This document shows, piece by piece, positions 3,727 through 38,475 of a stretch of DNA of 38,753 nt (position 1 is the stretch's first letter; each line of letters begins with the position of its first letter). This DNA comes from an uncultured Candidatus Saccharibacteria bacterium (lineage in GTDB: Bacteria > Patescibacteriota > Minisyncoccia > CAIUEV01): NCBI GenBank assembly GCA_964602125.1, contig CAZRPR010000003.1, forward strand, positions 1 to 38,753, in the 5' to 3' direction. The position numbers and the translations under genes were made by a program. A model generated the notes under the pieces. The model ran no database searches, had not been told where the DNA came from, and was given only the letters and a program-made list of their open reading frames with translations.

Positions 3727-6681
3727 TTACATCACATTACCTTTTTTCAAAGATTCAATCCAGGCCCAATATCCCTCTGGCCTAAGTAAATCAAAAATGT
3801 AGTGCTGCTTAAGATGGCTTCTAAATTTAGCACTAACTCTCATTTGGTCGATGTCCCTAAGCTTACTATTTAAAGCATTGAAATGTGCTTTAGCGGACTC
3901 CTCTTTTGGCACAATAGTTTCATCCTCGTCTTCATCTGACTTAATTTCAACTACTCGTACTAATTCATCAATACCTTCTTCTTGTAGTTCGCGTAAAAAA
4001 GCTAATGACTTAGAATCTGCCAAATTTCTAACTTTGGCAATATATTCAGAAAGATTTTGAACGATAAAAAAATCTGGATTAAAGCTTCTAGTTACCTCCG
4101 TTTTACCACCTTTCCAAAATTTATAGTCCAAAGAATAGAAACCTCTGTCTGAAGACTTTACCCATGACTTGAAAAAGGTCGAATTTTTCAAAAGTAAGAA
4201 TATAAACTCCTTTTCTGGTGAATGGGAGACTAACACTGCGCTTTGAGGAGACTTGAGAACTGACGGATTTACAATGTATGGCGGTCGAGGATCTTTATCG
4301 ACTAATGGTCTAGTATAATCAGAATGACTACCTAAAAAATCTTGCGGGTCAATTGTGAATAAAGTTCTTTGTTTTTTTTCTTCATCCGATTTGGTTCGCG
4401 CCTCAATTAAGTGTTTAAAAACAGCTTTGGTCTTAGTGTCTAATTCAGCTTCATAATTCTCACTAACAAATACTGTGGCATCTCGTTCCAAATCACCTAA
4501 TCGCACTGTTGAGCGTTCAATTGATTCTGTTGGGATTGGTATAATATCACCTAAAACATTTTCAAAGACTCGTTTCTTGGTGCCCTTTGGTAAAAATTGA
4601 TTGAAATATAAATCTATTTGTTGCTTATTTTCTTCAGATAGCTGATTGCCAACAATATTAGTTTGCTTCATTGCAGATAGAATTGTTTTACGAATCTCTA
4701 CTTCTTTTGGGCAACGTGCCTGTTCTCCTTGTCCGAAATCAAAATGAATGCCTTCATATTCCCTACCCTTGAAACGACGATGTAGATCAAGAATCACACC
4801 ATCAACAGATACAGTTTTTTTCTTAAATACGTACTGTTTGGTATCTTTCAAAAATTCTATTTTTACTGGCTCAGATAAATCTTGTTTACTTAAGATTAAT
4901 TTTCTTTTTGCTGGCAGTGACAATTCTCCTGCCTCCACATCTTTCATTACTGGTGTAGCGATATAACTAAGATTGAAAAGACAAAAATGGTTTTTAGCAC
5001 GATCTAAGTCCATTGTTTGGTTGGATGGCGTCAGGGGTTCCGAGGCAATGTGCATGTCAGATTGAATAACTGAATCCATCAACTCTTCAATATGGCTGGC
5101 AAATTTTTCATGGTTGGTTACAGTTAAACGAGGATAAAGTTCACCAATACTTAATCCGTGCACATTTATTTTTCGTGGTATACGCAAACCACGACCAAGA
5201 ACCTGGGAGATTAAAAGCTTTGAATTAAAGACTCGTTCCTCCATTGGCACGATCTGGAAAACATTATCCACATCCCACCCTTCTGACAATTTATTTACCG
5301 CAAAAATAAATTCTACTTTTCCACCGATTTTATCAGGGTTTGTTTCCTCAATATTATCCAATTGAGGTTTAAACTCTGATTCAGAAATACTAGAAACGAC
5401 ACAAATTACTCGCTCGCTTACCATTTGTTCTATTTCAGAAGCACTGCTACTTGCTCCGTTTTCTGAAACCTCCCATTTACTCAAAAATTTAATAAAATTT
5501 GCAGTCGCCTTTTTGGCATTCGCTTGATTAGGACAGATAAACATTGTAATTGGCTTCACAAGCATCTTGCCTTTTCTGACATAGGAATATTTTGCTTTGT
5601 TGTCTAGGTGATTTTTCAAAACCACTGCAAAACGTTTCTCGTCTGTCCATTGGATAGCGTCGCCCTCGGCATCAGAAGTTTTGAGTAAGGGATTAATTTC
5701 TTTGATATATTTTTCTTCAGTCGCTGTTTTAATAGAATAATCAAACAACACATCAGCAAAGTAGTCATCGCCGTTGTAAGGCGTACCAGTAAAACCAATA
5801 TGACGAGTGATTTTGTGCTTACCATTTGATTGAAAATATTCCGGCTTTTTGTAACGTCCTTTGCCTAATAAAAATTGCATCCACAGCCTCTCAGCATTAT
5901 CATCTGTTACTTTAGCATTTTCGGCTACAAATTCTTCTTCGACAGTGTTTGAGGTGGCATTAAATTTAAGATGTGAATAGGCATGATGCACTTCGTCGCT
6001 CAAAACCAAAATCTCATCATTACCACGAAACAGTGTGTCTTGAATACCGCCAAAAGTAAAAACAGCGTTAATGTTTTCGATCACAATACTATCGTCTTCA
6101 ATAGCGTCATTGTCAGTTAAAAGATTTATAGCTCGATTTTGATATTCCCTAGGAAGCAAAGCGTTTAATTTTGGATCGCGCATCAAATCTTTAAATTTAT
6201 CAGTCAAACCCTGTTCAATAATCGTTGAAGATGGGCCGAGCACCAAAACTCGTTTGGTTAAACCAAGTAATACCGACAAATGAGCCACAGCAAATATAAC
6301 AAAGGACTTGCCTGTGCCAGTGGCCATATGTACCACGCCAGACAACCGGTCGCGCAGTGGCAAATGCCCCATCATGATTTCTTCGGAACCAAAACGATCG
6401 CGTATTTGTGGCTTCAGGCTCCAATTTTCCATAGCTAAATCTTCAATCGTTTTATAGCTCCCACCCCACAGATAAATCATTACCTCACGAATAGCCTCAA
6501 ATTGATATTCGCGACCAGCAGTCAGAGCACGCACATAGTCCTCAATCTCAGAAAAGCGAAATTTGTCGTAGTTACATCTTCGGTCATTGATTTTGAGTGT
6601 ATGTTCAGAAAGATTCATTCGTTCAATTTCTTTCATTCTTTTCCCTCTTCTTCGTCTAATGATTGGTTTTTTATCTGACAT
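3727..6681 (-). CDS. res: Type III restriction enzyme Res subunit (SF2 helicase-like ATPase + C-terminal PD-(D/E)XK nuclease)
   Basis: Motif I MATGTGKSFV, motif II LSDEVHH, motif III GFTGTP, motif VI QVLGRGLR. C-terminal NPDFF...VVEIK fits PD...ExK. Starts 1 nt after the mod stop. Confidence 0.85.
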   Translation of the reverse strand: MSDKKPIIRRRRGKRMKEIERMNLSEHTLKINDRRCNYDKFRFSEIEDYVRALTAGREYQFEAIREVMIYLWGGSYKTIEDLAMENWSLKPQIRDRFGSEEIMMGHLPLRDRLSGVVHMATGTGKSFVIFAVAHLSVLLGLTKRVLVLGPSSTIIEQGLTDKFKDLMRDPKLNALLPREYQNRAINLLTDNDAIEDDSIVIENINAVFTFGGIQDTLFRGNDEILVLSDEVHHAYSHLKFNATSNTVEEEFVAENAKVTDDNAERLWMQFLLGKGRYKKPEYFQSNGKHKITRHIGFTGTPYNGDDYFADVLFDYSIKTATEEKYIKEINPLLKTSDAEGDAIQWTDEKRFAVVLKNHLDNKAKYSYVRKGKMLVKPITMFICPNQANAKKATANFIKFLSKWEVSENGASSSASEIEQMVSERVICVVSSISESEFKPQLDNIEETNPDKIGGKVEFIFAVNKLSEGWDVDNVFQIVPMEERVFNSKLLISQVLGRGLRIPRKINVHGLSIGELYPRLTVTNHEKFASHIEELMDSVIQSDMHIASEPLTPSNQTMDLDRAKNHFCLFNLSYIATPVMKDVEAGELSLPAKRKLILSKQDLSEPVKIEFLKDTKQYVFKKKTVSVDGVILDLHRRFKGREYEGIHFDFGQGEQARCPKEVEIRKTILSAMKQTNIVGNQLSEENKQQIDLYFNQFLPKGTKKRVFENVLGDIIPIPTESIERSTVRLGDLERDATVFVSENYEAELDTKTKAVFKHLIEARTKSDEEKKQRTLFTIDPQDFLGSHSDYTRPLVDKDPRPPYIVNPSVLKSPQSAVLVSHSPEKEFIFLLLKNSTFFKSWVKSSDRGFYSLDYKFWKGGKTEVTRSFNPDFFIVQNLSEYIAKVRNLADSKSLAFLRELQEEGIDELVRVVEIKSDEDEDETIVPKEESAKAHFNALNSKLRDIDQMRVSAKFRSHLKQHYIFDLLRPEGYWAWIESLKKGNVM

Positions 6682-6682
6682 A

Positions 6683-8812
6683 TTATTTGGTTACTATAAA
6701 TGGTTTACTTTCATTTCCATGCTTGTCAATCGCAATGACCGCGATTTTTTTCTTGGCCGATTCGTTCAGTGTAAAAAATCCCTCAGCATTTATATCTTTA
6801 GCAAAAACGGTCTTATCCATGTCGAAGGGTTTACCCACTTCATGATTAACATCGACCAAAAGCATAGCCAGACCCTCCAGACCCGGAAAGCGATTGCCTT
6901 CTTTGTTTAAAATTTTGGTTTCAAATTTGGTGATTTTTAGTCCTGGCTCATCACGTAAGATTTCAATCTCCACGTCCTCGTTAAAATAAAAAGCAGTAGA
7001 GGTAATAAGTTCGTTGACTGCTCCTTGTGAAGCTGGTTGTTCATGAAGCTCCAAGTGACGCGAAACATCTTCGAGTACCTTGTATGGGAAAGTTAGGAAT
7101 TTGAAAATCACTTCTTGACCCCCAGGATTTTTGAGCCTGGTGTCACCAATGTTAGTGCAATGTTCTGGAACGATAATATGATATTCTCTATGCAAACGCC
7201 CAGCACCTTGAGTGATAATGCTTTGCAAATAATCTTCATCAATTTTTACATTCTTAAAATGATGTTCGTCCCAAACCGGAAACACCTCCACTGGCGCACC
7301 ATCTTTTTCGGCATATATATTCGTAAGTTTTGTTTTACTGGCTTTTCCTTCATCGCGAACCAACTGAAACAAGCCTAAGACGAAAGCAATATAAGCATTT
7401 TTATGCTCTGGTGTGCCAAGTGCCATCACATGAGAGAAATCATAAGCACCAGCAGAAATAACGGAAAATGGTTTTGGATCTTTACTATATGAATCACCTT
7501 TTTTTACAATAATTTTATCGGCATCATCTTTTTCATCCACTAAGGCTTTACTTTCGCCTATACGAAGCATACGACGTTGTTGCGTATATATCGCATGCTT
7601 TCCAAAATCACAAGAAATCCATCGTCTTCCAAGTTTTTCAGCAACAGCAGGCGCAGATCCAGATCCAGCAAAACAATCTAAAACTATATCACCTGGATTA
7701 GACGAAGCCAACACAACCCTATCTAGAAACGCCTCTGGTTTTTGAGTTGGATAAAAACAATTTTCAAGTGCGCCGCCCTGCACTGGCGAAATATCAACCC
7801 ATATATCCTGCAATGGCACCCCCCTACCCTCATCTAAATATTTTTTTCTTTGCGGGACAGTGCCTGGATTCGTTTGTATTATTTCCCCAGCATCAAGTAA
7901 TTCTTGCATTCTCTTTCTGGAATACATCCAGTATCTAGTAACGCCCATAACCTCATATCGTGGATTTCCATTTGCCGCACCTCCTGGTCCAGCCATTGTT
8001 ACGAGCCTATAAACTCTGCCATCATTATCTGTATATTTATAAAAATCTTTTATATATTTTTCAGAATACGGTGTATAAATGCTATTCAAAGTAAAATTTT
8101 CACTTTTTCTATACAAAAGTATCACGTCATGCAATCGTCCAAGGTGTTTAGCACCTTGCCCCGAATCACCGTGTGAAAAAGTGCGCTTCCAAATAATTTC
8201 ATTTACAAAATTTTCCTTACCAAAAATTTCATCAAGCGTTATTTTAATACCATGGACCATTTTTTGATCTAAATGAACATATATACTACCATCTTTATGC
8301 AATATTTCAGACAAAAGCAACAACCGTTCGCGTAATGTTTCTATAAATTCGGAAGTAGCAATTTTATCATTATAACTTCTCTCCCCATCCTTCCCACCAA
8401 AATCACTCTTGGTAGCAAACGGCGGATCAATATAAATTAATTTTACTTTCCCCTTCACCTTGCCTTTGATTAGTGGATCTTCATCACGATAACAAGTTTT
8501 CAAAAACTGCAAATTATCACCTTGCACAATCATATTCTGCCACTCACCTTCCTTGGTCTCGCCAAAACTTCTCACCACTTGCAGTGGCGCTGCTCCAATG
8601 CCTGCTCCCGCCTCAGCCAAAATTGCTGCCTTGCTCCTCTTACCCGCATATTCAAGCGTTGGAATTTTGGCACGATCTAGTGCCTTCACATCAAACTTTT
8701 CAGCTGTGCCAGGGAAAAGTTTGGTCAGAAAATCAGGCGATGGCTCAACCCCAGCGTTTATAGCTTCTAGTAATTTGATTTTGTCTTCGTCGGTGAGATT
8801 TATTTTTGGCAT
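6683..8812 (-). CDS. mod: Type III R-M Mod subunit, beta-class N6-adenine/N4-cytosine DNA methyltransferase
   Basis: Motif IV LIYIDPPF precedes motif I VLDCFAGSGSA (beta-class order). Size and position upstream of res are typical of a mod-res operon. Confidence 0.85.
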   Translation of the reverse strand: MPKINLTDEDKIKLLEAINAGVEPSPDFLTKLFPGTAEKFDVKALDRAKIPTLEYAGKRSKAAILAEAGAGIGAAPLQVVRSFGETKEGEWQNMIVQGDNLQFLKTCYRDEDPLIKGKVKGKVKLIYIDPPFATKSDFGGKDGERSYNDKIATSEFIETLRERLLLLSEILHKDGSIYVHLDQKMVHGIKITLDEIFGKENFVNEIIWKRTFSHGDSGQGAKHLGRLHDVILLYRKSENFTLNSIYTPYSEKYIKDFYKYTDNDGRVYRLVTMAGPGGAANGNPRYEVMGVTRYWMYSRKRMQELLDAGEIIQTNPGTVPQRKKYLDEGRGVPLQDIWVDISPVQGGALENCFYPTQKPEAFLDRVVLASSNPGDIVLDCFAGSGSAPAVAEKLGRRWISCDFGKHAIYTQQRRMLRIGESKALVDEKDDADKIIVKKGDSYSKDPKPFSVISAGAYDFSHVMALGTPEHKNAYIAFVLGLFQLVRDEGKASKTKLTNIYAEKDGAPVEVFPVWDEHHFKNVKIDEDYLQSIITQGAGRLHREYHIIVPEHCTNIGDTRLKNPGGQEVIFKFLTFPYKVLEDVSRHLELHEQPASQGAVNELITSTAFYFNEDVEIEILRDEPGLKITKFETKILNKEGNRFPGLEGLAMLLVDVNHEVGKPFDMDKTVFAKDINAEGFFTLNESAKKKIAVIAIDKHGNESKPFIVTK

Positions 8813-8823
8813 AGGATTTTTGA

Positions 8824-11800
8824 TTATTGTTCGAGATTAAATTTATTTGCAAGTAAACGATCCAGCACCGTCACTTGCGTATCCCCTGGTTGTTCTGGGC
8901 GCAAAGTGAATTTATTGATGCGCAAAAAACGATAACCATAGCTTTCAAGTTCTAGGGTGCGACCATTGTCGTAATCCGTGAATTCTCGTGACAACGCATG
9001 GCGTGAAACTTCAGATGGATCTTTGAAATGAAATTCAATGCCATCATATTCCAAAATCAAAGTTTGCTCCTTACCACCTTTGGACAAAACCAACAAAAAG
9101 TCCACACGATACTTGGGCATCTGAGCTGCAAACTCAGTGCGCAAATAATTGCCAATTGGAAACTGTGGTACTAGACGGATGTTGGCTTTATTATTTTTGA
9201 AAAATTCAGTGTTAAGCACCAATTGATATAGTTCCTTTTCCTTGGGTGAATCAAAGATTGATTCATCTGCAATAAAGAAATCATTTTTCTCCGCTTCCTC
9301 TAAAGTGTTACGATAATGTTTCAGGGCATTGCCTAGTTGTGTATTGCTAAAATTTTCAATGTCTTGGCTAAGCACAAACACCATCGTGTCTTTGGCACGA
9401 GAAAAACCAACATTGAGCCGTTGCATTTTAAGCGAACGGATATTGTCAGCCGTACCACCGATGACCGGATAAATTGATCCGAGATTAGCATTACTTATAG
9501 CCTTATTTTCCACAAAAGAATAATAAACAATATCTCTTTCCTCACCCTGCACGTCTCCTACGAACCATACTTCCAGCTTGTGGTCGCGTTTCAGTTGCGG
9601 TAAGTTTGTCCGTTCGTTCAACGTCTCCTCCAATCTTATCTGTTGTTCTCTGAATGAAGTAATGACTCCAATCGTACCCTTGAAACCACCTGCTATAATA
9701 TTTTGGATATCTGTAATAATAGCATCAATTTCATCTAAATTTAAGTTAGCGCTGGCGTTACCTAAAGTTTTCACTGTTAGAAATCGCAATGTTTCTCCAA
9801 TCGGCTTGGTACGAATACGATTCATAATAAGTTCTTGCTGAGCAACTTTGTAGAATTTTTCATTAGAGTAGCTGATAATCTCCGGGAAACTACGAAAATG
9901 CTCCTTGAGTGATGTGGTGTAGTTGGCAATTGCTTTAGCAAAAGACAATGTCGAGGTTCTAATATTGAAAGTTTTGAGCCAAAGTACTGCTCCCGGATTA
10001 TCCTGCGGACGAATCAAGGCTTCGCTAACTAAATCATCAGTGTTAATATCACGAGCTACTTCGTCTACTAGCTCTTTTTTAGCCGAATCAGAGACTGATA
10101 CCTTGTAATCATCAGCATAAGCGTTTACAATTTCCGTAAAATAACTAGCCGAATATTTGGTAGAAACATTAATTGCACTAACTGCGCCATATTGATATTC
10201 GTCCCCAAAAATCACTACTTGTTTAGCGCGCAGAATTAATGAAATAGAATCAGCAATGGAAACTTGTGAAGCTTCGTCAATAATTAAAACATCAATCAAG
10301 TCTTCTTGCATGGGAAAATGTTTTGACAGGGTCGATGGCTCAGCAATAATAACCGAAATACCCTCAAGCAAAGTCTTGGTTTGGTCAGCTGTGAAACGCT
10401 TACCACCCTCAAAAGAAATTTTGAGTTGTTGCATAACACCTGAGTATTGATTGAGTTTTTTGAGACGAAGGTCGTTTTTGTGCTCAAGCTCTTTCTGTTT
10501 TAGACGTGAATACTCCCTAGTATCAGTTGTGAAGTCGTCGATCAAGGTGCTCGATTGAGATAGTCTGGCGTGTAGAAGAATCCATTTAAAAACCAATTTT
10601 TCTGTTTCACTACCATACTTTAGTCTACCAATAGTTGATATTTGATCCTGAATAACTCCAATGACCTCTAGAATAGTTCCGTAATGATCGAACAATTTAT
10701 TGATTGATTCAAGGGTCTCTATATTAAATTTATCAAGGGCTGTCTGATATTTTTGCACCTCGGTGAACATTTCCGAAATAGATAAATTAGCATTGCCTAC
10801 TAATTTTTGATATTCTTCAACCCAAACTTTGTATTTACGCAAATTAATTACTGCTTCAGCACGCTCTAAACCAGCCGACAAATCATTAACTGTTGCAAAA
10901 TTAAAATCTATTCCAGCAATTTTACTTATCTCGGTTAGTGGCTCAGTGTATTGTAAAGAAAGAGTTTTTCTAATAATCTCTTCTAGCTGCTCTTTGCTGC
11001 TTGCCTTTCCTGTTATTTTTGCTATGAAACCAGCGGACGCGTCTCTAACGGAAAGTTCTTTGACAACAGCGTCCTTCTTAAACAGGTTTGCCATTTCATG
11101 AATTAGATTAGAAAGATCTTCTGGAACGCTAGCGAATGAAGTTTCTACTGAGAGGATTTCTGCTGGTGTTGTATTTACATGCTCACAGGCTTCAATAAAT
11201 TTATGTAGTTCATGCTTGCGAGTCACAATAAATTCATATTCCGCTAGAGAAGTGGAAATAAAAATATTTTCAGTAGCAAGATCGACAAATTTTTCCAAAA
11301 TTTCCATATTTATTTCAGTTTCTAGCCTCAAAGTTGTGTCCAGCAAGCTCCCTATTTTGTCCGCCTTTTTAAGTTTTTCATTAATTTGTGAAAATTCCAC
11401 TTGATCGATCAATCTTTGTGATTCATTTTTCGCCGAGCTTAAACGAGATTGCAAAATACTTTCTAGATGTTTAGCAATTTTATTGCTGTCTTCGGTAATG
11501 GCTTTGTCGTTGTATTCCAGTGTTCTTTCAGTTGCACCGTTAACAACTGCTGAGGTTAAAGTGTTGCTAAAATTATTAGCAGACCCAGTTTCAATGTCCA
11601 TGCGCACTATTGACGGCTTAGCTTGAGGATGAAGTGCTTTAAACTTGTCTGTCATCATGCGATCAATTACATCAAGCGCCTCTTTTTTGTGAGATGTAAC
11701 TACCACGGTCTTGCCATCTTCATTAGCTTTGTACGCTAGTGCCGCAATTGTATGGGACTTACCAGTCCCGGGAGGACCATCAACTACAATTATTTTATTC

Positions 11801-13083
11801 TTGGTATTCTCTAGGGCAAGCAGGATTCTTTTCTGTGAATTATTAAGGGGGATCGGACCATCTGACATATAGCGTTTTGCGCTATTCGATGGATAACTAT
11901 CGTTAAATTTACGAATTACATCGTCTGTATAATTCGGTACTGTTCCAGAAATATATCCATCTATAAATGATCCGAATTGACTATGACCACCTGCGTCAAT
12001 ATTGGTCATTATCTCTGAATAATCCAATAATTTTTTGTCTTCATTTGCTACAATTTGAAAACCAATACGACCACTGATGGCTGGAAAATTTTCTTCATCA
12101 TGAATTATCTCTTTGAATTGTGGTTCTAAAATAAAATTTTGATTGATTCCATATTGAGCTTGCAAAAAAACTTCTATCGCTCCAAGAGGTGCACTTGCCT
12201 GCTCAATTGAAGATGCACGTGGAGTAGTCAAAACTCGATCAAATTTGAAAAAATTGATAGCAGGCACATTCAACAATAGCAAATTTCTTGGAAAAGAAAT
12301 TGTAATCTCAGTATTGGACAAGCGCATGTCCACTTCAATAAAATATAGCGGAAAAGAATCATCGCCACGAGAAATTGTGTGAAAGAAAATATAAAAAGTC
12401 CCTAGCGTCGAAAAAGCTTGATAGTTATGTAAATTTAAAAATAAATCATACAGGACAATGTCTTTGATTTCTTTTTTAAAATATTCTGTAACTTTTTTTA
12501 CATACTCATCTGGCTCAACTTGATTTTTTGCTAACTTCTTTAAAGCATCTAAGTGTGTCTTAAGATAAGTATTTAAACCAAAACTTGATTGAGGAAAACT
12601 GGTTGCTCCACTTTCTTCTTTAAATTGCAATAATAATTTTTCTTGCAAATCCAAAATAGCTTCCTCTAGTGTTTTACGTATCTTTATGTTGTATAATCTG
12701 ATTGCTTCATCCCAAGCAATTTTCGAAACATCCAATTCCACATTATTTGCTGATCGAGTCTCGATGCCTAAACGTTCTAGTTCATCTTTTAATAATTTTT
12801 CCAAGCACTCCTTGTCAAGATTACTGCTTATTGCTTTTGTTATTGCTAAGATTATATCTTGATTAGCTAGTGATAATGTGTATTGACCAGGTTTAATTTT
12901 GATATCAACTGATTTGCCAACTCTAATTGATTCCAGTAATAATTCCTGAAATTCCGGGTATAATGGCAGATCTAAGGTCAGCTCGTTATTGGTCCAACGA
13001 TAACTAACCATTCGCTTAAAGTTAAAGCGAGTCTCAGTAAAAGTAGCAAAATAATTGAGAATAGTTTTCGAGAGATTGCTCAT
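8824..13083 (-). CDS. Large Upf1-like SF1 helicase (AAA_11/AAA_12 type) with DUF4011-like N-terminus and C-terminal DUF559/Vsr-like endonuclease domain (HheA-like)
   Basis: Walker A VVDGPPGTGKSHT (about aa 436), VLIIDEASQ (D936), VIFGDEYQ, VQGEERDIV, LNVGFSRAKD. C-terminal YRVDFLL...ILEYDGIEFH...GYRFLRI matches the DUF559 pattern. Confidence 0.8.
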   Translation of the reverse strand: MSNLSKTILNYFATFTETRFNFKRMVSYRWTNNELTLDLPLYPEFQELLLESIRVGKSVDIKIKPGQYTLSLANQDIILAITKAISSNLDKECLEKLLKDELERLGIETRSANNVELDVSKIAWDEAIRLYNIKIRKTLEEAILDLQEKLLLQFKEESGATSFPQSSFGLNTYLKTHLDALKKLAKNQVEPDEYVKKVTEYFKKEIKDIVLYDLFLNLHNYQAFSTLGTFYIFFHTISRGDDSFPLYFIEVDMRLSNTEITISFPRNLLLLNVPAINFFKFDRVLTTPRASSIEQASAPLGAIEVFLQAQYGINQNFILEPQFKEIIHDEENFPAISGRIGFQIVANEDKKLLDYSEIMTNIDAGGHSQFGSFIDGYISGTVPNYTDDVIRKFNDSYPSNSAKRYMSDGPIPLNNSQKRILLALENTKNKIIVVDGPPGTGKSHTIAALAYKANEDGKTVVVTSHKKEALDVIDRMMTDKFKALHPQAKPSIVRMDIETGSANNFSNTLTSAVVNGATERTLEYNDKAITEDSNKIAKHLESILQSRLSSAKNESQRLIDQVEFSQINEKLKKADKIGSLLDTTLRLETEINMEILEKFVDLATENIFISTSLAEYEFIVTRKHELHKFIEACEHVNTTPAEILSVETSFASVPEDLSNLIHEMANLFKKDAVVKELSVRDASAGFIAKITGKASSKEQLEEIIRKTLSLQYTEPLTEISKIAGIDFNFATVNDLSAGLERAEAVINLRKYKVWVEEYQKLVGNANLSISEMFTEVQKYQTALDKFNIETLESINKLFDHYGTILEVIGVIQDQISTIGRLKYGSETEKLVFKWILLHARLSQSSTLIDDFTTDTREYSRLKQKELEHKNDLRLKKLNQYSGVMQQLKISFEGGKRFTADQTKTLLEGISVIIAEPSTLSKHFPMQEDLIDVLIIDEASQVSIADSISLILRAKQVVIFGDEYQYGAVSAINVSTKYSASYFTEIVNAYADDYKVSVSDSAKKELVDEVARDINTDDLVSEALIRPQDNPGAVLWLKTFNIRTSTLSFAKAIANYTTSLKEHFRSFPEIISYSNEKFYKVAQQELIMNRIRTKPIGETLRFLTVKTLGNASANLNLDEIDAIITDIQNIIAGGFKGTIGVITSFREQQIRLEETLNERTNLPQLKRDHKLEVWFVGDVQGEERDIVYYSFVENKAISNANLGSIYPVIGGTADNIRSLKMQRLNVGFSRAKDTMVFVLSQDIENFSNTQLGNALKHYRNTLEEAEKNDFFIADESIFDSPKEKELYQLVLNTEFFKNNKANIRLVPQFPIGNYLRTEFAAQMPKYRVDFLLVLSKGGKEQTLILEYDGIEFHFKDPSEVSRHALSREFTDYDNGRTLELESYGYRFLRINKFTLRPEQPGDTQVTVLDRLLANKFNLEQ

Positions 13084-13171
13084 AATATTTTTGTTCTTTT
13101 TTATTAAATATTTTTCCTTAATATCCTACACCCAACATTCAATAACATCCAAAAAACACTGTATTGAAAAG

Positions 13172-13318
13172 CTATCTAGCTTTTTTCACAAACTGAATTT
13201 CATAAACCGGAATCGCTTCCGGATTTTCATGGATGTATTTTTGTAAGTAGTCTTCACTCTCAAAAGAAGATTTAATCAGTTTTTGCGTTCCGTCTTTACT
13301 GGAAATAATAATACTCAT
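13172..13318 (-). pseudogene. 48-codon ORF (MSIIISSKDGTQKLIKSSFESEDYLQKYIHENPEAIPVYEIQFVKKAR), possibly the N-terminal remnant of a NucS/DUF91/Shedu-style PD-(D/E)XK nuclease
   Basis: Translated by hand. The pattern F.SE..LQ.YI.ENPE.I resembles N-termini of that nuclease class from memory. It sits 43 nt downstream of repeat copy 1. Confidence 0.25.
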
Positions 13319-13360
13319 TTAGTCGAATTATTAAATTATTTTCATTCCGGTGCCTACATC

Positions 13361-13392
13361 CTCACCTTACCCCCCAAAATTAATTAAATCAA
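13361..13392 (-). repeat. Direct repeat copy 1 (32 nt): ctcaccttaccccccaaaattaattaaatcaa. The minus strand reads TTGATT-17-TAAGGT.
   Basis: Matches 16181-16211 except for one extra C. Overlaps the stop codon of the 195-aa ORF. Confidence 0.9.
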
Positions 13393-13976
13393 AACTTAAT
13401 TTCCCCTCCCATCAAGCCTTGGTGCTTGCTTTTAATTCTTTTTTGGAAGTTTTCCAACAAAACCAAATATTCATTCACTTGCTCGACGGTGTAAGCTTCG
13501 TATTCCTTGTGTTCCAGGCTGGTGATGTGAACGAAGTTGCGGACTTTTCGGAGGTTGTGGAGGGCGTTTTTCATGGAGCCGTCGAGGAGGCCGTGCCGGA
13601 AGCCAGAGTCGATTAAGTAAATAAAATTCTCGTTTTCTTCAAAGCTGACGTTGCTTTTTTTGCTAGATAGTTGGAAGAGGAGGTCGTAGAGAGCGCTTTC
13701 CATGACGCCGGCGATGGTGATGAGCATATTTTTGCAGTGGAGAGATTCGATGGTGAGATACATTTGGTAGTCGTTGTAGAGATGGGCCATGTATTCCAAG
13801 TATTGGAGGTGGTAGGCGATGTTCTCTCGGGCGGGGAGATATTCGATGAAGGACCACTCTGCTTTGTAGTGATTGGCGCTTTGGGGGTGGCGGTCTTTGG
13901 GCAGGAGGATTTTCTTGTCGGAGTTGTCCTGCTTTTTTTCCTCGTCAAAGCTGACTTTTTTCTTGAGTAATTCCAT
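13389..13976 (-). CDS. Hypothetical 195-aa protein; tentative HEPN-like motif LRKVRNFVH
   Basis: Its ATG directly abuts the upstream gene's stop (TAAATG). R-x6-H / RN..H near the C-terminal third is only loosely HEPN-like. Confidence 0.6.
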   Translation of the reverse strand: MELLKKKVSFDEEKKQDNSDKKILLPKDRHPQSANHYKAEWSFIEYLPARENIAYHLQYLEYMAHLYNDYQMYLTIESLHCKNMLITIAGVMESALYDLLFQLSSKKSNVSFEENENFIYLIDSGFRHGLLDGSMKNALHNLRKVRNFVHITSLEHKEYEAYTVEQVNEYLVLLENFQKRIKSKHQGLMGGEIKF

Positions 13977-15236
13977 TTATTTTTTCTTTATTGAAATAGA
14001 TTTTTCCTCGACGGGCGGGGAGATTTTGAGAATTTTTTTGGTCAGCTGTTTTTCCAGGAGGTCGTCGTCAAGGAGTTTTTTGATTTTGCCGAAAGAAAGC
14101 TCGGAAAGCTCTTTCCAGTGTTTGGTGTCTTGGAGTAGTTTTTCCAGTTTTTGATACGCCTCCGGTTCAATGGATTTTCGGGGAAAGGCAAAATCTTTAT
14201 TCTTTTTGATGCAAACGAGGTGACTGCCACCGTCGAGGGTTTCTAGTTTGTTGGCTTTGGCGTATTGAAAGATTACATCCTCGATACGCTCAAGCTCCTG
14301 CTCAACAATCCAGGCTTTTTCTCTGGCCTTTCGGTTGATTTCCGATCTCTTGAGGACAAACGCAATATATTTTTTAGCCAGTTGAACCCCGCTGTCTTTG
14401 AGATACTTATTGGCCGGCAGACTGACAACTTTGAAAAGATGTTTCTTTTTGGGACAATGCTCCCAAAAACCGCACCAATCACATTTAGTTTCTTTGGCGG
14501 GAAAATCGTTTTTGCGTTCGGCTAAATTAATTTCGGCAATCAACTGGAGGATTTCTTCCTTTAACTCTGCTAATTGCTTATCCGTTCGCTCCGAGAAGAC
14601 ATCCTCCCCAAAGGCGACGTAATGCCAAACCAAACTCACTTTTTTGGCCTCGTGAAATTTTTGCTTAACGGCCATGGAATAAAGAGCCAGTTGACGATCT
14701 TTGTCGGCGTATTCTTGATCCATAATGGCTCCTGTTTTGTAGTCATGAACGGAATAGTGGCCTTTTTTGTCGCGGGCTAAGCGATCAATAAAGCCGGTTA
14801 TTTTGTACTTATTCCAATTGAGAGAAATTTCTTTTTCCACTCCCAGTGTTTGGTCTTGATTAAAAGGATAGAATTTTCGATAGTAATTGGCAATGCATTT
14901 TTTACCAAGTTCGAAATAGTGTTCTTTGCTAAATTCTTTGTTGTTGATAGCGATGGTATCCTCCCAATCTTTTTTCCAGTTCTGCTCGTAAAATTCCAAG
15001 AGTTTTTCCAAAGTGGTTATTTTGGTTTTTATAATCCCTTTATACAGAAATTCCATGGTGTCATGGACCAAGCCCCCCATGAAAGCTTCAATGGTCGTGC
15101 TTTCTTCGGCTGGCTTTAATCGGTCAAGATATTTATATTTATACTGAAGCGGACACCTTTCATAAACTTGCAGCTTGGAATGAGAAAATTGTTTCATTAA
15201 GTTATATAGATCTATTAAATTATTCCACCCTTTCAT
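13977..15236 (-). CDS. PD-(D/E)XK nuclease, RecB/AddB/Cas4-like with a four-Cys cluster, plus a C-terminal extension of about 140 aa of unknown function
   Basis: YERCPLQYKYKY (first Cys), GFIDRL...SVHDYKTG (D...D-x-K), QLALY, CDWCGFWEHC (C-x2-C-x5-C). I prefer the ATG at 15236, preceded by GGAGGT, over the TTG at 15263 used in the ORF track. Confidence 0.8.
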   Translation of the reverse strand: MKGWNNLIDLYNLMKQFSHSKLQVYERCPLQYKYKYLDRLKPAEESTTIEAFMGGLVHDTMEFLYKGIIKTKITTLEKLLEFYEQNWKKDWEDTIAINNKEFSKEHYFELGKKCIANYYRKFYPFNQDQTLGVEKEISLNWNKYKITGFIDRLARDKKGHYSVHDYKTGAIMDQEYADKDRQLALYSMAVKQKFHEAKKVSLVWHYVAFGEDVFSERTDKQLAELKEEILQLIAEINLAERKNDFPAKETKCDWCGFWEHCPKKKHLFKVVSLPANKYLKDSGVQLAKKYIAFVLKRSEINRKAREKAWIVEQELERIEDVIFQYAKANKLETLDGGSHLVCIKKNKDFAFPRKSIEPEAYQKLEKLLQDTKHWKELSELSFGKIKKLLDDDLLEKQLTKKILKISPPVEEKSISIKKK

Positions 15237-15253
15237 CTTACCTCCAAACAACG

Positions 15254-15279
15254 TAAGGAACAATAATTATTGTTCCTTA
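15254..15279. repeat. Perfect 26-nt palindrome taaggaacaataattattgttcctta between the Bro-N gene stop and the nuclease gene start
   Basis: The sequence equals its own reverse complement. Located in the 57-nt intercistronic gap. Confidence 0.9.
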
Positions 15280-15293
15280 TCAAGGGGAAAAAG

Positions 15294-16145
15294 CTATTCT
15301 TTGCTTTTATTTTTTTTCAACATCAAAACTTGCCGAGCGTTGAGTGGACTCACTACTTGCTTACCGGTTTCAAGCTCCAACTCCATACGAGCTCCTCTAG
15401 CTATTTTCCCGCCACGCTTTGCAACCTCTTCGTGCTCCGGAAATGATTTGGGATTAGTAATTTCAGAGATTTCTTTAGTGGATAATTCGGCCAACATATT
15501 CAAAACCAACTCTTTATTGGTCATATTGTCACGCAAATTTTCTTTTTTTAAACCTTTAAATTTTTTATATTCTTTAGCGGTTTTATCCGCCCATGTTTTA
15601 TAAATAATATCTGTAAGGGTAGCGAATTCCAATCCTTCCCTGAGTCCATGCTTTCTCCATTCATCAGTGAGTTCTTTACGAATTTCGATACTTTTTAATC
15701 TTTGATTTATCCAATTATCTGAATATCCCAAATTTTTATAGTCCCACATTGCTTGCTTTATGGAAAGTTCCGGATCTTGTATTTGGTCAAGTCTTTTTTT
15801 AGCAATTTCCGACAGCCACACTTTGAAAGGTTCGGCTTTTTTAGAAGGAATTGACTGAATGAGGCGAAAAACCTGCTTTGTATCTACCACATCTGTCAAG
15901 CGCATCTTTCCGTCCGGAGCTTTTATTTTCAACTGGTTAGTGCTACTAACCAGTTCGCTTCCTTCGGTTTTGAGTTTATTTTTGAGCCACTTCCAATAAT
16001 TTCTAACTTTTTGATAGTCATTTTGATCGGTAAGTACGGTAATAATGTCCAGAACTGAGAACCACCATTTTTCCATTTCTTCATCCCAAACAGTCCTAAC
16101 TTTCTGTTTTTCGAATAGCTGAATCGAATTTTTCATCTTATTCAT
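15294..16145 (-). CDS. Bro-N domain protein of the DinD (DNA-damage-inducible protein D)-like family
   Basis: LFEKQKVRTVWDEEMEKWWFSVLDIITVLT, IQSIPSKKAEPFKVWL, IQDPELS, ELTDEW, KKFKGLKKENLRDNMT and GGKIARGARMELE all match the widespread Bro-N/DinD-like family as I recall it. Confidence 0.75.
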   Translation of the reverse strand: MNKMKNSIQLFEKQKVRTVWDEEMEKWWFSVLDIITVLTDQNDYQKVRNYWKWLKNKLKTEGSELVSSTNQLKIKAPDGKMRLTDVVDTKQVFRLIQSIPSKKAEPFKVWLSEIAKKRLDQIQDPELSIKQAMWDYKNLGYSDNWINQRLKSIEIRKELTDEWRKHGLREGLEFATLTDIIYKTWADKTAKEYKKFKGLKKENLRDNMTNKELVLNMLAELSTKEISEITNPKSFPEHEEVAKRGGKIARGARMELELETGKQVVSPLNARQVLMLKKNKSKE

Positions 16146-16180
16146 TTAAACATTAAAAGTTTACCATCGTGATACTTATT

Positions 16181-16211
16181 CTCACCTTACCCCCAAAATT
16201 AATTAAATCAA
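16181..16211 (-). repeat. Direct repeat copy 2 (31 nt): ctcaccttacccccaaaattaattaaatcaa. The minus strand reads TTGATT-16-TAAGGT.
   Basis: Located 36 nt upstream of the Bro-N/DinD-like start codon. Confidence 0.9.
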
Positions 16212-16299
16212 GGCGGACGATTTGTTGGGATGATAAATATACTGTATGACTTTTTCACAGGGATAAAAAGCGATTTTGTTGATTAAGGAGGAAAACAAA

Positions 16300-16473
16300 A
16301 TGCGAGAGTTGATTCTTTGGAACATGCTGTTTGGCAGTGGATGGATCAAAAAGAGAAGAACCGGCTTTTGGGGCGTTTATGATCGATTAGCCGTTTCAGT
16401 AGAAGTGATCGTCGGCTTTATCATCGCCAACATAGTCATTTTTTTCATTGAACTTCACGTCATTAATCGCTAA
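16300..16473 (+). CDS. 57-aa small membrane protein (MRELILWNMLFGSGW...VIVGFIIANIVIFFI...)
   Basis: ATG preceded by AAGGAGG with a 7-nt spacer. One C-terminal TM helix. Followed by a strong terminator. It is the only plus-strand gene in the island. Confidence 0.5.
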   Translation: MRELILWNMLFGSGWIKKRRTGFWGVYDRLAVSVEVIVGFIIANIVIFFIELHVINR

Positions 16474-16491
16474 AATGTTATTGTTTCCCCT

Positions 16492-16520
16492 AAAGGCAGA
16501 GAAGATTCTCTGCCTTTTTT
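16492..16520 (+). terminator. Intrinsic terminator (aaaggcagagaa / ttctctgccttt arms, then a T-run)
   Basis: 12-nt perfect inverted arms at 16492-16503 and 16506-16517; T-run to 16520. Confidence 0.75.
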
Positions 16521-16561
16521 AAGTGCTAGCTTAAGGTTGTTATACGGTAAACAAAAAAGAT

Positions 16562-16590
16562 TTGACGGTACTGAAAAAAATCAGTACAAA
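16562..16590 (+). promoter_or_regulatory. Candidate sigma70-type promoter TTGACG-17 nt-TACAAA, pointing into the 3' end of the NYN gene
   Basis: Hexamers and 17-nt spacing read directly. Function not demonstrated. Confidence 0.3.
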
Positions 16591-16597
16591 TTAAGTA

Positions 16598-17161
16598 TCA
16601 AGACGAAAGGGGATCCGAAAGGTGTTGGTGCCTAAGGAGCCCCTTTTTTATTTGCCATACTTTTATTTTTTTCTTGATATCTTTACTGTCCAGAGAATCA
16701 AAAAATTCCGAACCTAGTTCTTTATAGAGAGAGGAGGCGAATTTTTTGTTAGGGAAAAGGATCTTGCCGAATTTATGTTCTTCAATGAGAAAATCAACGA
16801 GCATTTTATAGTCTCCGTCTCCTGAAACCAAGATAATCTTGCCGAAGTCTTCTCTTTGGTAGATTTTTTTCATTATCTGAAAGACAATATCCGAATCGAC
16901 ATTCCCCTTCTTCTTGCCGGTCATGGCGCTGTTATGCTCCCGAAACATTAAAATAAAGCCCGCTTCCTGAACGCTGGTATATATTTCCTGATGAATTTCA
17001 TCCATGCAGCCTAAAAAGTAGTAGGCGGTTTCGACATGATACCTGTCTTTCAAAAAAACTCGAAATTTTTTCAAATCAATTCTCCATGGCCTTTTCAGTT
17101 TAGTCGTTCCCATGTGGAGATTCTGACCGTCAACAAAGGCATAATTGTTCTGATTTTCCAT
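16598..17161 (-). CDS. NYN domain (LabA/DUF88-like, PIN-related) putative RNase
   Basis: N-terminal YAFVDGQNLHMG and central ILVSGDGDY are the conserved acidic motifs of NYN/LabA proteins. Confidence 0.8.
   Translation of the reverse strand: MENQNNYAFVDGQNLHMGTTKLKRPWRIDLKKFRVFLKDRYHVETAYYFLGCMDEIHQEIYTSVQEAGFILMFREHNSAMTGKKKGNVDSDIVFQIMKKIYQREDFGKIILVSGDGDYKMLVDFLIEEHKFGKILFPNKKFASSLYKELGSEFFDSLDSKDIKKKIKVWQIKKGLLRHQHLSDPLSS
16606..16649 (+). terminator. Extended hairpin (ggggatcc...ggagcccc with inner aggtg/gtgcct pairing) followed by T6, lying inside the last ~17 codons of the NYN ORF
   Basis: Stem with one mismatch plus T-run 16644-16649 on the plus strand. On the minus strand it is followed by tttcgtctt. 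Confidence 0.45.
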
Positions 17162-17270: not shown

Positions 17271-17337
17271 GTTTTGGGCTCGCCTGCCTACCATCCCTAC
17301 CGGGAGGTAAACCGGCAGGCAGGTAGCTTAGTTGGTA
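17271..17337 (+). pseudogene. Partial duplicate of the tRNA-Ala 5' end (5-nt leader + nt 1-21), split after nt 7 by a 41-nt GC-rich palindromic insert (17283-17323)
   Basis: gttttgggctcg + [cctgcctacc...ggcaggcagg] + tagcttagttggta compared with gttttgggctcgtagcttagttggta at 17346-17371. Confidence 0.75.
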
Positions 17338-17350
17338 ATTTAAAAGTTTT

Positions 17351-17423
17351 GGGCTCGTAGCTTAGTTGGTAGAGCGCCTCCATGGCATGGAGGAGGTCAG
17401 GGGTTCGAGTCCCCTCGAGTCCA
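17351..17423 (+). tRNA. tRNA-Ala (anticodon GGC), no encoded CCA
   Basis: Cloverleaf folded by hand: acceptor GGGCTCG/CGAGTCC with G3:U70, anticodon loop AUGGCAU, T-loop TTCGAGT, discriminator A. Confidence 0.92.
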
Positions 17424-17498
17424 CAAATTAAAAACACTCTTAAATTAAAAAAGCCGTAAAAACATCTTATATTCTGTTCTTACGGCTAAATGAATGAT

Positions 17499-18077
17499 CT
17501 ATCTTTGCCAAAGTTCCCCTCCCAGGAAAAGTTGATTTTTTTCCAAATCTTTGATTTGCCCTCTTTCATCGAGAGCGTAGGCCCGACTAACAGTGTAGAC
17601 TTTTTTACTAAAATCAAAAATTGCTTCAACCAAGCCAATCTCTCCATTGCCAAAATAGGGTGGGCGAGATTTCTTTTTCAAATCAATGAATTCTCTTAGA
17701 GACGCTTCGTCTTTGAAAACTTTAATAACCATGCCCTCATGCTTTCGGAAAGATCCTCCAAAAAAACCGGCAGAAAAAGAAGTTACGGAGCGCATATAAA
17801 CCGGTTTTTCCCAGTTTTCCTGCATGAAACTCCAAAAATGATCATTCGAAAGACCGTAAATTTTGTTGAAGAACCAAACTTGGCTCAAAGTTTCAAAGCA
17901 GGAAGACGCTTCTTGGAAGGAATAGTTAATAATCGATTCTTGAAAAAGAACATCCTCTTTGCTCTCTTCGGCGTAAAGTATTCTTTCGGAAAAAAGAAAT
18001 GTTAGAAGAAATAAGAAGATAATAAAACAAGCAAGTCCTAAAAAGTGATCAGAAAAAAACCTTTGCTTTGTTGACAT
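17499..18077 (-). CDS. Hypothetical membrane-anchored/secreted protein
   Basis: N-terminal hydrophobic helix LGLACFIIFLFLLTFLF. GGAGGAAAG Shine-Dalgarno upstream. No motif recognised. Confidence 0.5.
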   Translation of the reverse strand: MSTKQRFFSDHFLGLACFIIFLFLLTFLFSERILYAEESKEDVLFQESIINYSFQEASSCFETLSQVWFFNKIYGLSNDHFWSFMQENWEKPVYMRSVTSFSAGFFGGSFRKHEGMVIKVFKDEASLREFIDLKKKSRPPYFGNGEIGLVEAIFDFSKKVYTVSRAYALDERGQIKDLEKNQLFLGGELWQR

Positions 18078-36755: not shown

Positions 36756-36782
36756 TTAGCACTCAAACTTGACGAGTGCTAA
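36756..36782 (+). promoter_or_regulatory. CIRCE operator (HrcA binding site): TTAGCACTC-N9-GAGTGCTAA
   Basis: Perfect match to the CIRCE consensus, 44 nt upstream of the groEL ATG. Confidence 0.9.
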
Positions 36783-36804
36783 AATTATTGTATGATTATT
36801 TTAG

Positions 36805-38475
<1,671 letters not shown>

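Follow-up and report, generated by a model that had tools for sequence, protein, structure and literature searches.

In a 38,753-nucleotide stretch of chromosomal DNA from an uncultured bacterium of the Patescibacteria (Candidate Phyla Radiation, CPR), which we refer to as the window, a near-identical direct repeat of 31/32 nt occurs twice within an island of defence-type genes. A preliminary description of this repeat, hereafter R, had offered two readings: that a duplicated promoter/operator co-regulates the genes in front of which it lies, or that the two copies are attachment-site-like (att-like) junctions of an inserted module of three genes. The first is the better supported of the two, at least in its promoter part. 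R is most likely an ordinary kind of feature, namely a small portable promoter that was copied before a newly captured gene, and not the ends of an inserted three-gene element. The fuller proposal, that R is a portable core promoter situated at module junctions of a mosaic defence island and recently copied there, has in our judgement about an even chance of being correct. The evidence consists of the boundaries of the repeat, the ancestry of the DNA on either side of each copy, and related elements in the window and in other Patescibacteria.

Copy 1 (R1) has the sequence ctcaccttaccccccaaaattaattaaatcaa and lies at 13361-13392, and copy 2 (R2), ctcaccttacccccaaaattaattaaatcaa, lies at 16181-16211. 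The sole difference within this core is one C in a homopolymer, with six C in R1 and five in R2. These coordinates, the sequences and the one-base difference are as previously described when read again from the window, and they are confirmed by independent Logan contigs, which on the opposite strand have five G at R2 (L001, L002) and six G at R1 (L146, L147). Because independent contigs show the same tract lengths, the difference is not an artefact of one assembly. The G-run of R1 (13373-13378; 666-672 in L145) does vary, with six G in two runs and GGGGTT in a third (L145). Such changes shift the spacer of the putative promoter described below between 17 and 16 nt, and could be tuning, ordinary mutation or sequencing error. 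Alignment of the flanks shows that the repeated block is sharply bounded. It extends by three gene-proximal bases (13358-13360, atc, and 16178-16180, att) to 34/35 nt, at 13358-13392 and 16178-16211, with one mismatch and one indel, and beyond these limits there is no similarity. On the minus strand, R1 thus reads TTGATTTAATTAATTTTGGGGGGTAAGGTGAG followed by GAT, and R2 reads as R1 with five G, followed by AAT. The 31-mer had no chance match in 100 shuffles, and the window holds only the two copies; exact-pattern scans of species-representative genomes, JGI metagenomes and IMG/VR returned zero matches. These counts, which for the source genome cover 38.7 kb, also bear on whether R is a dispersed repeat of the REP or MITE type. 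(A scan with a 13-mer core, allowing three mismatches, was too noisy to be used.)

The two copies bracket three minus-strand open reading frames (ORFs), as stated before: 15294-16145, encoding a Bro-N/DinD-like protein, 13977-15263, encoding a Cas4-like nuclease (PDDEXK_1), and 13389-13976, encoding a protein of 195 aa. R1 is not purely intergenic, which the preliminary description had missed, as the TGA stop codon of the 195-aa gene (13391-13389) falls within it; R1 is the native 3′ flank of this gene. R2 lies in a divergent spacer, since a plus-strand ORF at 16301-16473, encoding a small hydrophobic protein of 57 aa, is divergent to the Bro-N gene. This ORF carries one of the rare GGAGG sites, and short public contigs end inside or beside it (at 16373 and ~16482).

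The minus strand of both copies contains TTGATT, a spacer of 17 nt (R1) or 16 nt (R2), and TAAGGT, an arrangement that had been likened to a sigma-70 −35/−10 pair and that is indeed present. The repeated block starts exactly at the −35-like TTGATT and ends 3-6 nt past the −10-like TAAGGT. We scored this site with a sigma-70 weight matrix adjusted to the base composition of the window. R1 scores 7.3 bits and R2 6.3 bits, which are moderate values that place them in the top 0.03-0.07% of all combinations of position and spacer. With this matrix, a score of 6.3 bits or more turns up once in some 310 positions on each strand, so it is unlikely that the block begins on a promoter-like site by chance. 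Both copies are in the sense orientation, and their distances from the start codons downstream also hold: R1 ends 43 nt before the ATG of a 48-codon ORF that is discussed below, and R2 ends 36 nt before the first ATG of the Bro-N gene, or 45 nt before the ATG of the public gene call (a 280-aa product). In the spacer downstream of the 195-aa gene, the site in R1 is the best-scoring one. The host appears to use canonical sigma-70 promoters, because the groEL promoter reads TTGACG, 16 nt, TATGAT (11.7 bits). This promoter overlaps a canonical CIRCE operator (TTAGCACTC, 9 nt, GAGTGCTAA) at 36758-36784; there is no groES directly upstream of groEL, but a divergent dnaG instead.

Elements with the same architecture are found at two further places. 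Directly past the orthologue of the 195-aa gene in a defence island of a Magasanikbacteria genome (L104/L105), there is a TTGATG, 17 nt, TAGGGT site of 8.7 bits, by far the best in that spacer. Within the window, a third and diverged R-like element, which we call W3, lies on the minus strand at 15235-15263, ahead of the nuclease gene. It reads TTGTTC, 17 nt, TAAGAT (6.4 bits), with GGAGG just before the −10-like hexamer. R1, R2, the L104 element and W3 align in register, with GGrGG immediately before the −10-like hexamer in each. Other Patescibacteria loci with a homologue of the 195-aa gene hold exact intergenic repeats of their own, of 20-35 nt. One such element, TTCTAG(C)TTTTTGCAAAAAGCTGTAnTA, recurs ahead of one small gene after another in L211 (4599-5925; also in L119, L214, L218, L226 and L135). 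In at least four copies it can be read by eye as TTCTAG, a 17-nt spacer that holds an 18-bp palindrome, and TAnTAn, although the weight matrix ranks another reading first. One of the small genes downstream encodes, again by eye, a helix-turn-helix regulator, and a protein that looks ArsR-like by eye is encoded among them. The L211 element thus reads as a promoter with a palindromic operator in its spacer, and these genomes may habitually place repeated promoter units ahead of adjacent genes. A literature search on promoters of Patescibacteria found nothing on the point.

The DNA on either side of R1 differs in origin. The segment with the nuclease and 195-aa genes has 76-78% DNA identity to the Magasanikbacteria island and to L102, which is prophage-like and carries a large serine recombinase and a terminase as well as a tRNA-Asp. 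The homology to L104 spans the start of the nuclease gene, the 195-aa gene and R1, and ends at 13363, the outer edge of R. Counted over 33 nt from the stop codon, R1 is identical to the L104 sequence at 25 of 33 positions (76%), compared with 47% at the four-fold degenerate sites of the two genes (n = 140). Because R1 is conserved above this neutral level, it appears to be old and kept by selection, as an element that belongs with the 3′ end of the 195-aa gene. Only 17 nt beyond R1, homology to a different gene begins. The 48-codon ORF (13172-13318, minus strand), which had been described as preceding the helicase operon, does exist at that position, but it is not a leader gene. Instead, it belongs to a truncated remnant (13172-13340) of a 372-aa NucS-like gene, comprising 22 nt of upstream DNA and the first ~44 codons. 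The remnant is 74% identical to residues 1-46 of the L102 gene, with window positions 13340-13194 matching L102 2103-2252, and L102 has this gene on the upstream side of its nuclease gene. Downstream of R1, the first gene that is intact encodes a superfamily 1 (SF1) helicase of 1419 aa (8824-13083, minus strand) with Mokosh-like matches, followed on the same strand by genes for a methylase, ResIII and GmrSD. Downstream of the orthologous element in L104 lies a GmrSD gene.

R2 is likewise fused to DNA from elsewhere. The Bro-N/DinD-like gene (15294-16145, minus strand; Pfam Bro-N, 9e-11) matches the PADLOC candidate system PDC-S13 (3.7e-123). Its closest homologues, with 81-84% identity, are inside type I restriction-modification (R-M) operons, where hsdS immediately precedes them without a spacer and hsdR comes after them, and a blastn-short comparison of these loci found no R-like element upstream of them. 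We therefore consider that R2 did not arrive with the Bro-N gene. More generally, DinD/Bro-N-like PDC-S13 proteins are extremely abundant and well conserved, forming about 8000 clusters at an E-value of 1e-60 or better, the 120 best having at least 73% identity. They are encoded directly before hsdR in all four contexts that were read (L141-L144), and directly after an hsdS-like 3′ end in both of those with readable preceding DNA. A literature search on PDC-S13 found nothing. Between R2 and the Bro-N ATG, 32 nt (16146-16177, minus strand) are fused directly to the end of R2 and read ..NKYHDGKLLMFK*. These ~12 codons have a counterpart, ..YYRDKLLTFK.., in the same register upstream of the homologues in L141 and L142, by eye and over a short tract. 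Since this tract matches hsdS ends, it is a probable remnant of an hsdS 3′ end, and the Bro-N gene was presumably taken along with this hsdS tail and fused to the end of R2. Judging from these homologies, both copies of R are situated at joints between segments of different ancestry.

The three bracketed genes, which had been treated as one cassette, are not a unit, because the Bro-N gene comes from type I R-M operons and the other two genes have other neighbours elsewhere. A perfect 13+13 palindrome that resembles a terminator hairpin (15254-15279, minus strand; 100% complementary) follows the stop codon of the Bro-N gene and, together with W3, separates it from the nuclease pair. The nuclease (13977-15236, within the ORF 13977-15263, minus strand; PDDEXK_1, 9e-32; PADLOC Cas4, 8e-14) has 78-83% amino-acid identity to its L104 and L102 orthologues. 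These begin at MKQFSHSK, which corresponds to position 15197, downstream of W3, and 15197 is thus probably the true start. The 195-aa protein (13389-13976, minus strand) belongs to a family of at least 94 clusters that is almost confined to Patescibacteria. It is covered by no Pfam or PHROG family, has only a weak PADLOC match (E = 1.3e-4), and no homologue was found in known phages. Its AlphaFold model (pLDDT 82.7) is all-helical, and the top matches in the Protein Data Bank (PDB) are HEPN toxins, with weak E-values (0.016 and above). There are also weak hints of DUF4145 and HepT, and an RKVRNFVH motif. The model and these matches suggest that the protein is a probable HEPN-type effector and not a DNA-binding regulator, and on the basis of its HEPN-like fold we dropped the idea that it regulates through R as an operator. 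In its closer members (at least 55% identity), the gene directly follows one for a ~406-aa PD-(D/E)XK protein. Nuclease and 195-aa genes form a conserved Patescibacteria pair that is found in defence islands and in one prophage-like element (L102, L104, L106, L108, L149, L150, L152-L154, L228). More distant homologues of the 195-aa gene pair instead with NYN, GmrSD or a helicase/methylase operon.

We propose that R is a core promoter of the sigma-70 type, extending from the −35 hexamer to about the transcription start. R1 would be the old copy, already joined to the 195-aa gene at its 3′ end when the lineages of the window and L104 parted, and would read into whichever gene follows: in the window the truncated NucS-like gene and then the helicase, methylase and ResIII genes, and in L104 the GmrSD gene. 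The direction of copying that we infer makes R2 the recent copy, arising via duplication or gene conversion and fused to a segment that starts inside the hsdS 3′ end and carries the Bro-N/DinD-like gene, which would normally have no promoter of its own. W3 would be a third and older relative that heads the nuclease/HEPN pair, and the region would thus comprise three transcription units with related promoters. Several observations weigh against this model. The −10-like TAAGGT matches the consensus at 3 of 6 positions and the two hexamers together at 7 of 12, so that a scan requiring 9 of 12 does not call the site. The R2 spacer contains better sites, of 7.7 bits (16258-16230) and 6.7 bits (16185-16158), and R2 is only third best there. 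Some of the −35 hexamer of R1 also serves as Phe and stop codons for the 195-aa gene and is constrained by them, and a simple sigma-70 model does not account for the conserved G-run. In L104, two more G-rich copies (219-254 and 1110-1145; 83% alike) agree with R in the core but differ in −35/−10 geometry, and a 29-nt repeat that flanks a cassette after the 195-aa gene in L106 is not promoter-like.

The positions of both copies at ancestry breakpoints could also be explained if R were a recombination site, such as an att-like site or a cassette junction, used by homologous or site-specific exchange to swap or insert modules, with its likeness to a promoter being incidental or secondary. The outer edge of R1 is where homology to L104 ends, and the 5′ end of an unrelated gene comes 17 nt further on; R2 is joined to the hsdS tail and the Bro-N gene. 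A parallel comes from L106 and L107, which are 98% identical until the last 2 nt of the 29-nt element just after the 195-aa gene and unrelated past it; in L106 the element recurs, perfectly copied, 1060 nt further along, where it flanks a single 296-aa gene. The homologous module in L102 adjoins a large serine recombinase, in a prophage-like element at tRNA-Asp. Nonetheless, a promoter is also where one would expect breakpoints if cassettes had nothing homologous in common except short conserved promoters. The absence of an integrase that was noted earlier is borne out, as Pfam and PADLOC scans found no recombinase among the ten main ORFs of the island (the scan did not extend to small ORFs or to DNA left of the window). 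The bracketed genes are not seen elsewhere as a unit, the inner ends of the R copies have no terminal inverted repeats, and the sequence of R is not common to islands, as that of a dedicated site would be. A comparison with empty sites had been proposed, yet no single-copy empty site was found in the collections, in relatives or in three runs of the same population, which have the R1 junction (three runs) or the R2 junction (two) and no alternative one. A scan for empty sites based on holB found only L003, a 40%-identical relative with other genes and no tRNA-Ala at the matching position, and the region was not recovered for L022, the closest relative by GroEL (93%). Look-ups with window proteins found only short Logan contigs, all with the arrangement of the window, and none that spans the junction between the NYN gene and R2. 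We thus regard a recombination site as unlikely, though as the main rival, and the att-like reading retains mainly the ancestry junctions in its favour. Two special cases were rejected: an att site of a large serine recombinase by the length of the repeat, since these enzymes are not known to leave 31-nt direct repeats, and a target-site duplication of a transposon by the lack of both inverted repeats at the inner ends and, among the ORFs scanned, a transposase. A duplication of 31 nt also exceeds the usual lengths of target-site duplications.

Somewhat less likely still is that only R1 is functional, as an element at the 3′ end of the 195-aa gene (a transcript end, or a stability or protein-binding site with a G-rich core), and that R2 has no function, being the scar left when a segment was recently duplicated or rearranged. 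The above-neutral conservation indeed concerns only the copy after the 195-aa gene, a purine-rich tract ~17-20 nt past the stop codon recurs in three lineages (the window, L104 and L228), and the difference between the copies falls in a homopolymer prone to mutation, which is what one would expect of young neutral duplicates. On the other hand, a scar would not be expected to start at a −35-like hexamer, in the sense orientation and at promoter distance from an otherwise promoterless gene, with a third relative before the nuclease gene. A 3′-end element of the RNA kind also finds little in the sequence: the folding z-scores of R lie between −0.4 and +0.5 on both strands, no better than shuffles and with no hairpin or terminator, and an Rfam search of the window reached the gathering score at two tRNAs only and gave nothing on R at E-values up to 1. 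The absence of an Rfam match and of a stable fold led us to rule out a structured RNA. It is very improbable that the G-rich half of R (GGGGGTAAG followed by GTG) is a Shine-Dalgarno sequence with the start codon of a short upstream ORF or a lost gene, which would make R a translation-initiation region. It does resemble GGAGGTAAG followed by ATG ahead of the nuclease ORF, and every copy has a GTG or ATG 3-5 nt past the G-run, but the resulting ORFs have 3, 10 and 9 codons and no common peptide. The G-run is not a plausible ribosome-binding site because Shine-Dalgarno sequences are nearly absent from the genes of the window (about 28 of 30 have nothing like GGAGG), and the GGAGG...ATG inside W3 is an unlikely translation start because the nuclease orthologues start downstream of it. 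Among these genes GGAGG is found only at the ORF 17499-18077 and at the upstream ATG of the nuclease ORF, and start regions are A/T-rich (for example, at 36826 for groEL and 26731 for argS). Finally, as a long shot, the island-specific elements past the 195-aa gene (R, its L104 relative and the 29-nt repeat of L106/L107) could be junctions of an undescribed, integrase-free cassette exchange in Patescibacteria defence islands, in which the adjacent Cas4-like nuclease might take part. If so, two observations would be accounted for: related islands lose their homology at or close to the distal edge of these elements, and single cassettes lie between perfect copies. The L106 element, AAAAGAATTACGTAATTAATTACTTACCA (5601-5629 and 6661-6689; 833-859 in L107), is 40 nt past the 195-aa gene and contains overlapping palindromes, and the single gene that it flanks encodes an HExxH motif. 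This 29-nt sequence bears no relation to R, and L149 has a relative of it after its 195-aa gene.

The surroundings of R are those of a mosaic island next to core genes. The right half of the window contains the housekeeping genes holB, pgi, argS, mnmA, dnaG and groEL, and its GroEL is 93% and 91% identical to those of two metagenome-assembled genomes (MAGs) of uncultured bacteria and 85% identical to that of a Moranbacteria MAG, among others. Leftwards of ~17300, genes are all on the minus strand and of defence type, in the order NYN, Bro-N/DinD-like, Cas4-like PD-(D/E)XK, 195-aa gene, 48-codon ORF, SF1 helicase, N6/N4 methylase, ResIII, GmrSD and MazF. In a Paceibacterota MAG (L133, 4168-10540, compared with 8824-17161 in the window), NYN, a homologue of the 195-aa gene, a 1413-aa helicase (42% identical) and the methylase have a matching order, and the last three form one tight operon, with the helicase gene beginning 5 nt past the 195-aa homologue. 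This matching order in a tight operon suggests that an older HEPN/helicase/methylase system received the other modules of the window as insertions. At the border of the island is a tRNA-Ala gene (17351-17424), whose 5′ part, with 5 nt of leader (GTTTTGGGCTCG...GTAGCTTAGTTGGTA), is duplicated just upstream (17272-17337). The partial duplicate is split by a 39-nt insert that forms a hairpin (−31.5 kcal/mol, z = −2.2), and may be a remnant of an old attachment site.

If R is a promoter, a defence gene without a promoter of its own was taken from a type I R-M operon and put to work via fusion to a copy of a 35-nt promoter that the island already had. R would then be one of few promoter candidates defined by sequence for uncultured Patescibacteria; the genes studied here are without Shine-Dalgarno sequences. 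The region is also re-annotated, from one cassette to three units, with a gene remnant and a HEPN-like partner of the Cas4-like nuclease identified. The practical value of these results is modest.

R shares features with several known systems. As with the att cores of tyrosine recombinases, an island beside a tRNA gene has a few accessory genes enclosed by near-identical direct repeats of ~30 nt; however, there is no integrase, the bracketed genes have two origins, no empty site was found, R does not lie in a tRNA or any other conserved target, and one copy appears to have been the native flank of an internal gene since before a lineage split. The joining of promoterless foreign genes downstream of a short recurring element in an accessory array is reminiscent of integron cassettes (attI/attC). 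In contrast to integrons, there is no IntI and no attC-type imperfect palindrome, the fold of R is at chance level, and the sequence of the element differs between islands. Phase-variable promoters, such as those of Neisseria porA and opc, have poly-G between −35 and −10, and the G-run of R is likewise inside the putative spacer, with a length that differs between copies (6 versus 5) and between runs (6 G versus GGGGTT). Compared with these switches, the tract in R is much shorter, and its variation could reflect ordinary mutation or a sequencing error. From a standard sigma-70 promoter, R differs in its weak match to the consensus and in the conserved G-run just upstream of the −10-like hexamer. 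Otherwise it resembles portable sigma-70 promoters, being bounded by −35- and −10-like hexamers with a 16-17-nt spacer and lying in sense orientation 36-45 nt before an ATG, and, like the portable promoters in defence islands and in prophage morons, it recurs ahead of adjacent units, where DNA segments that differ in ancestry meet.

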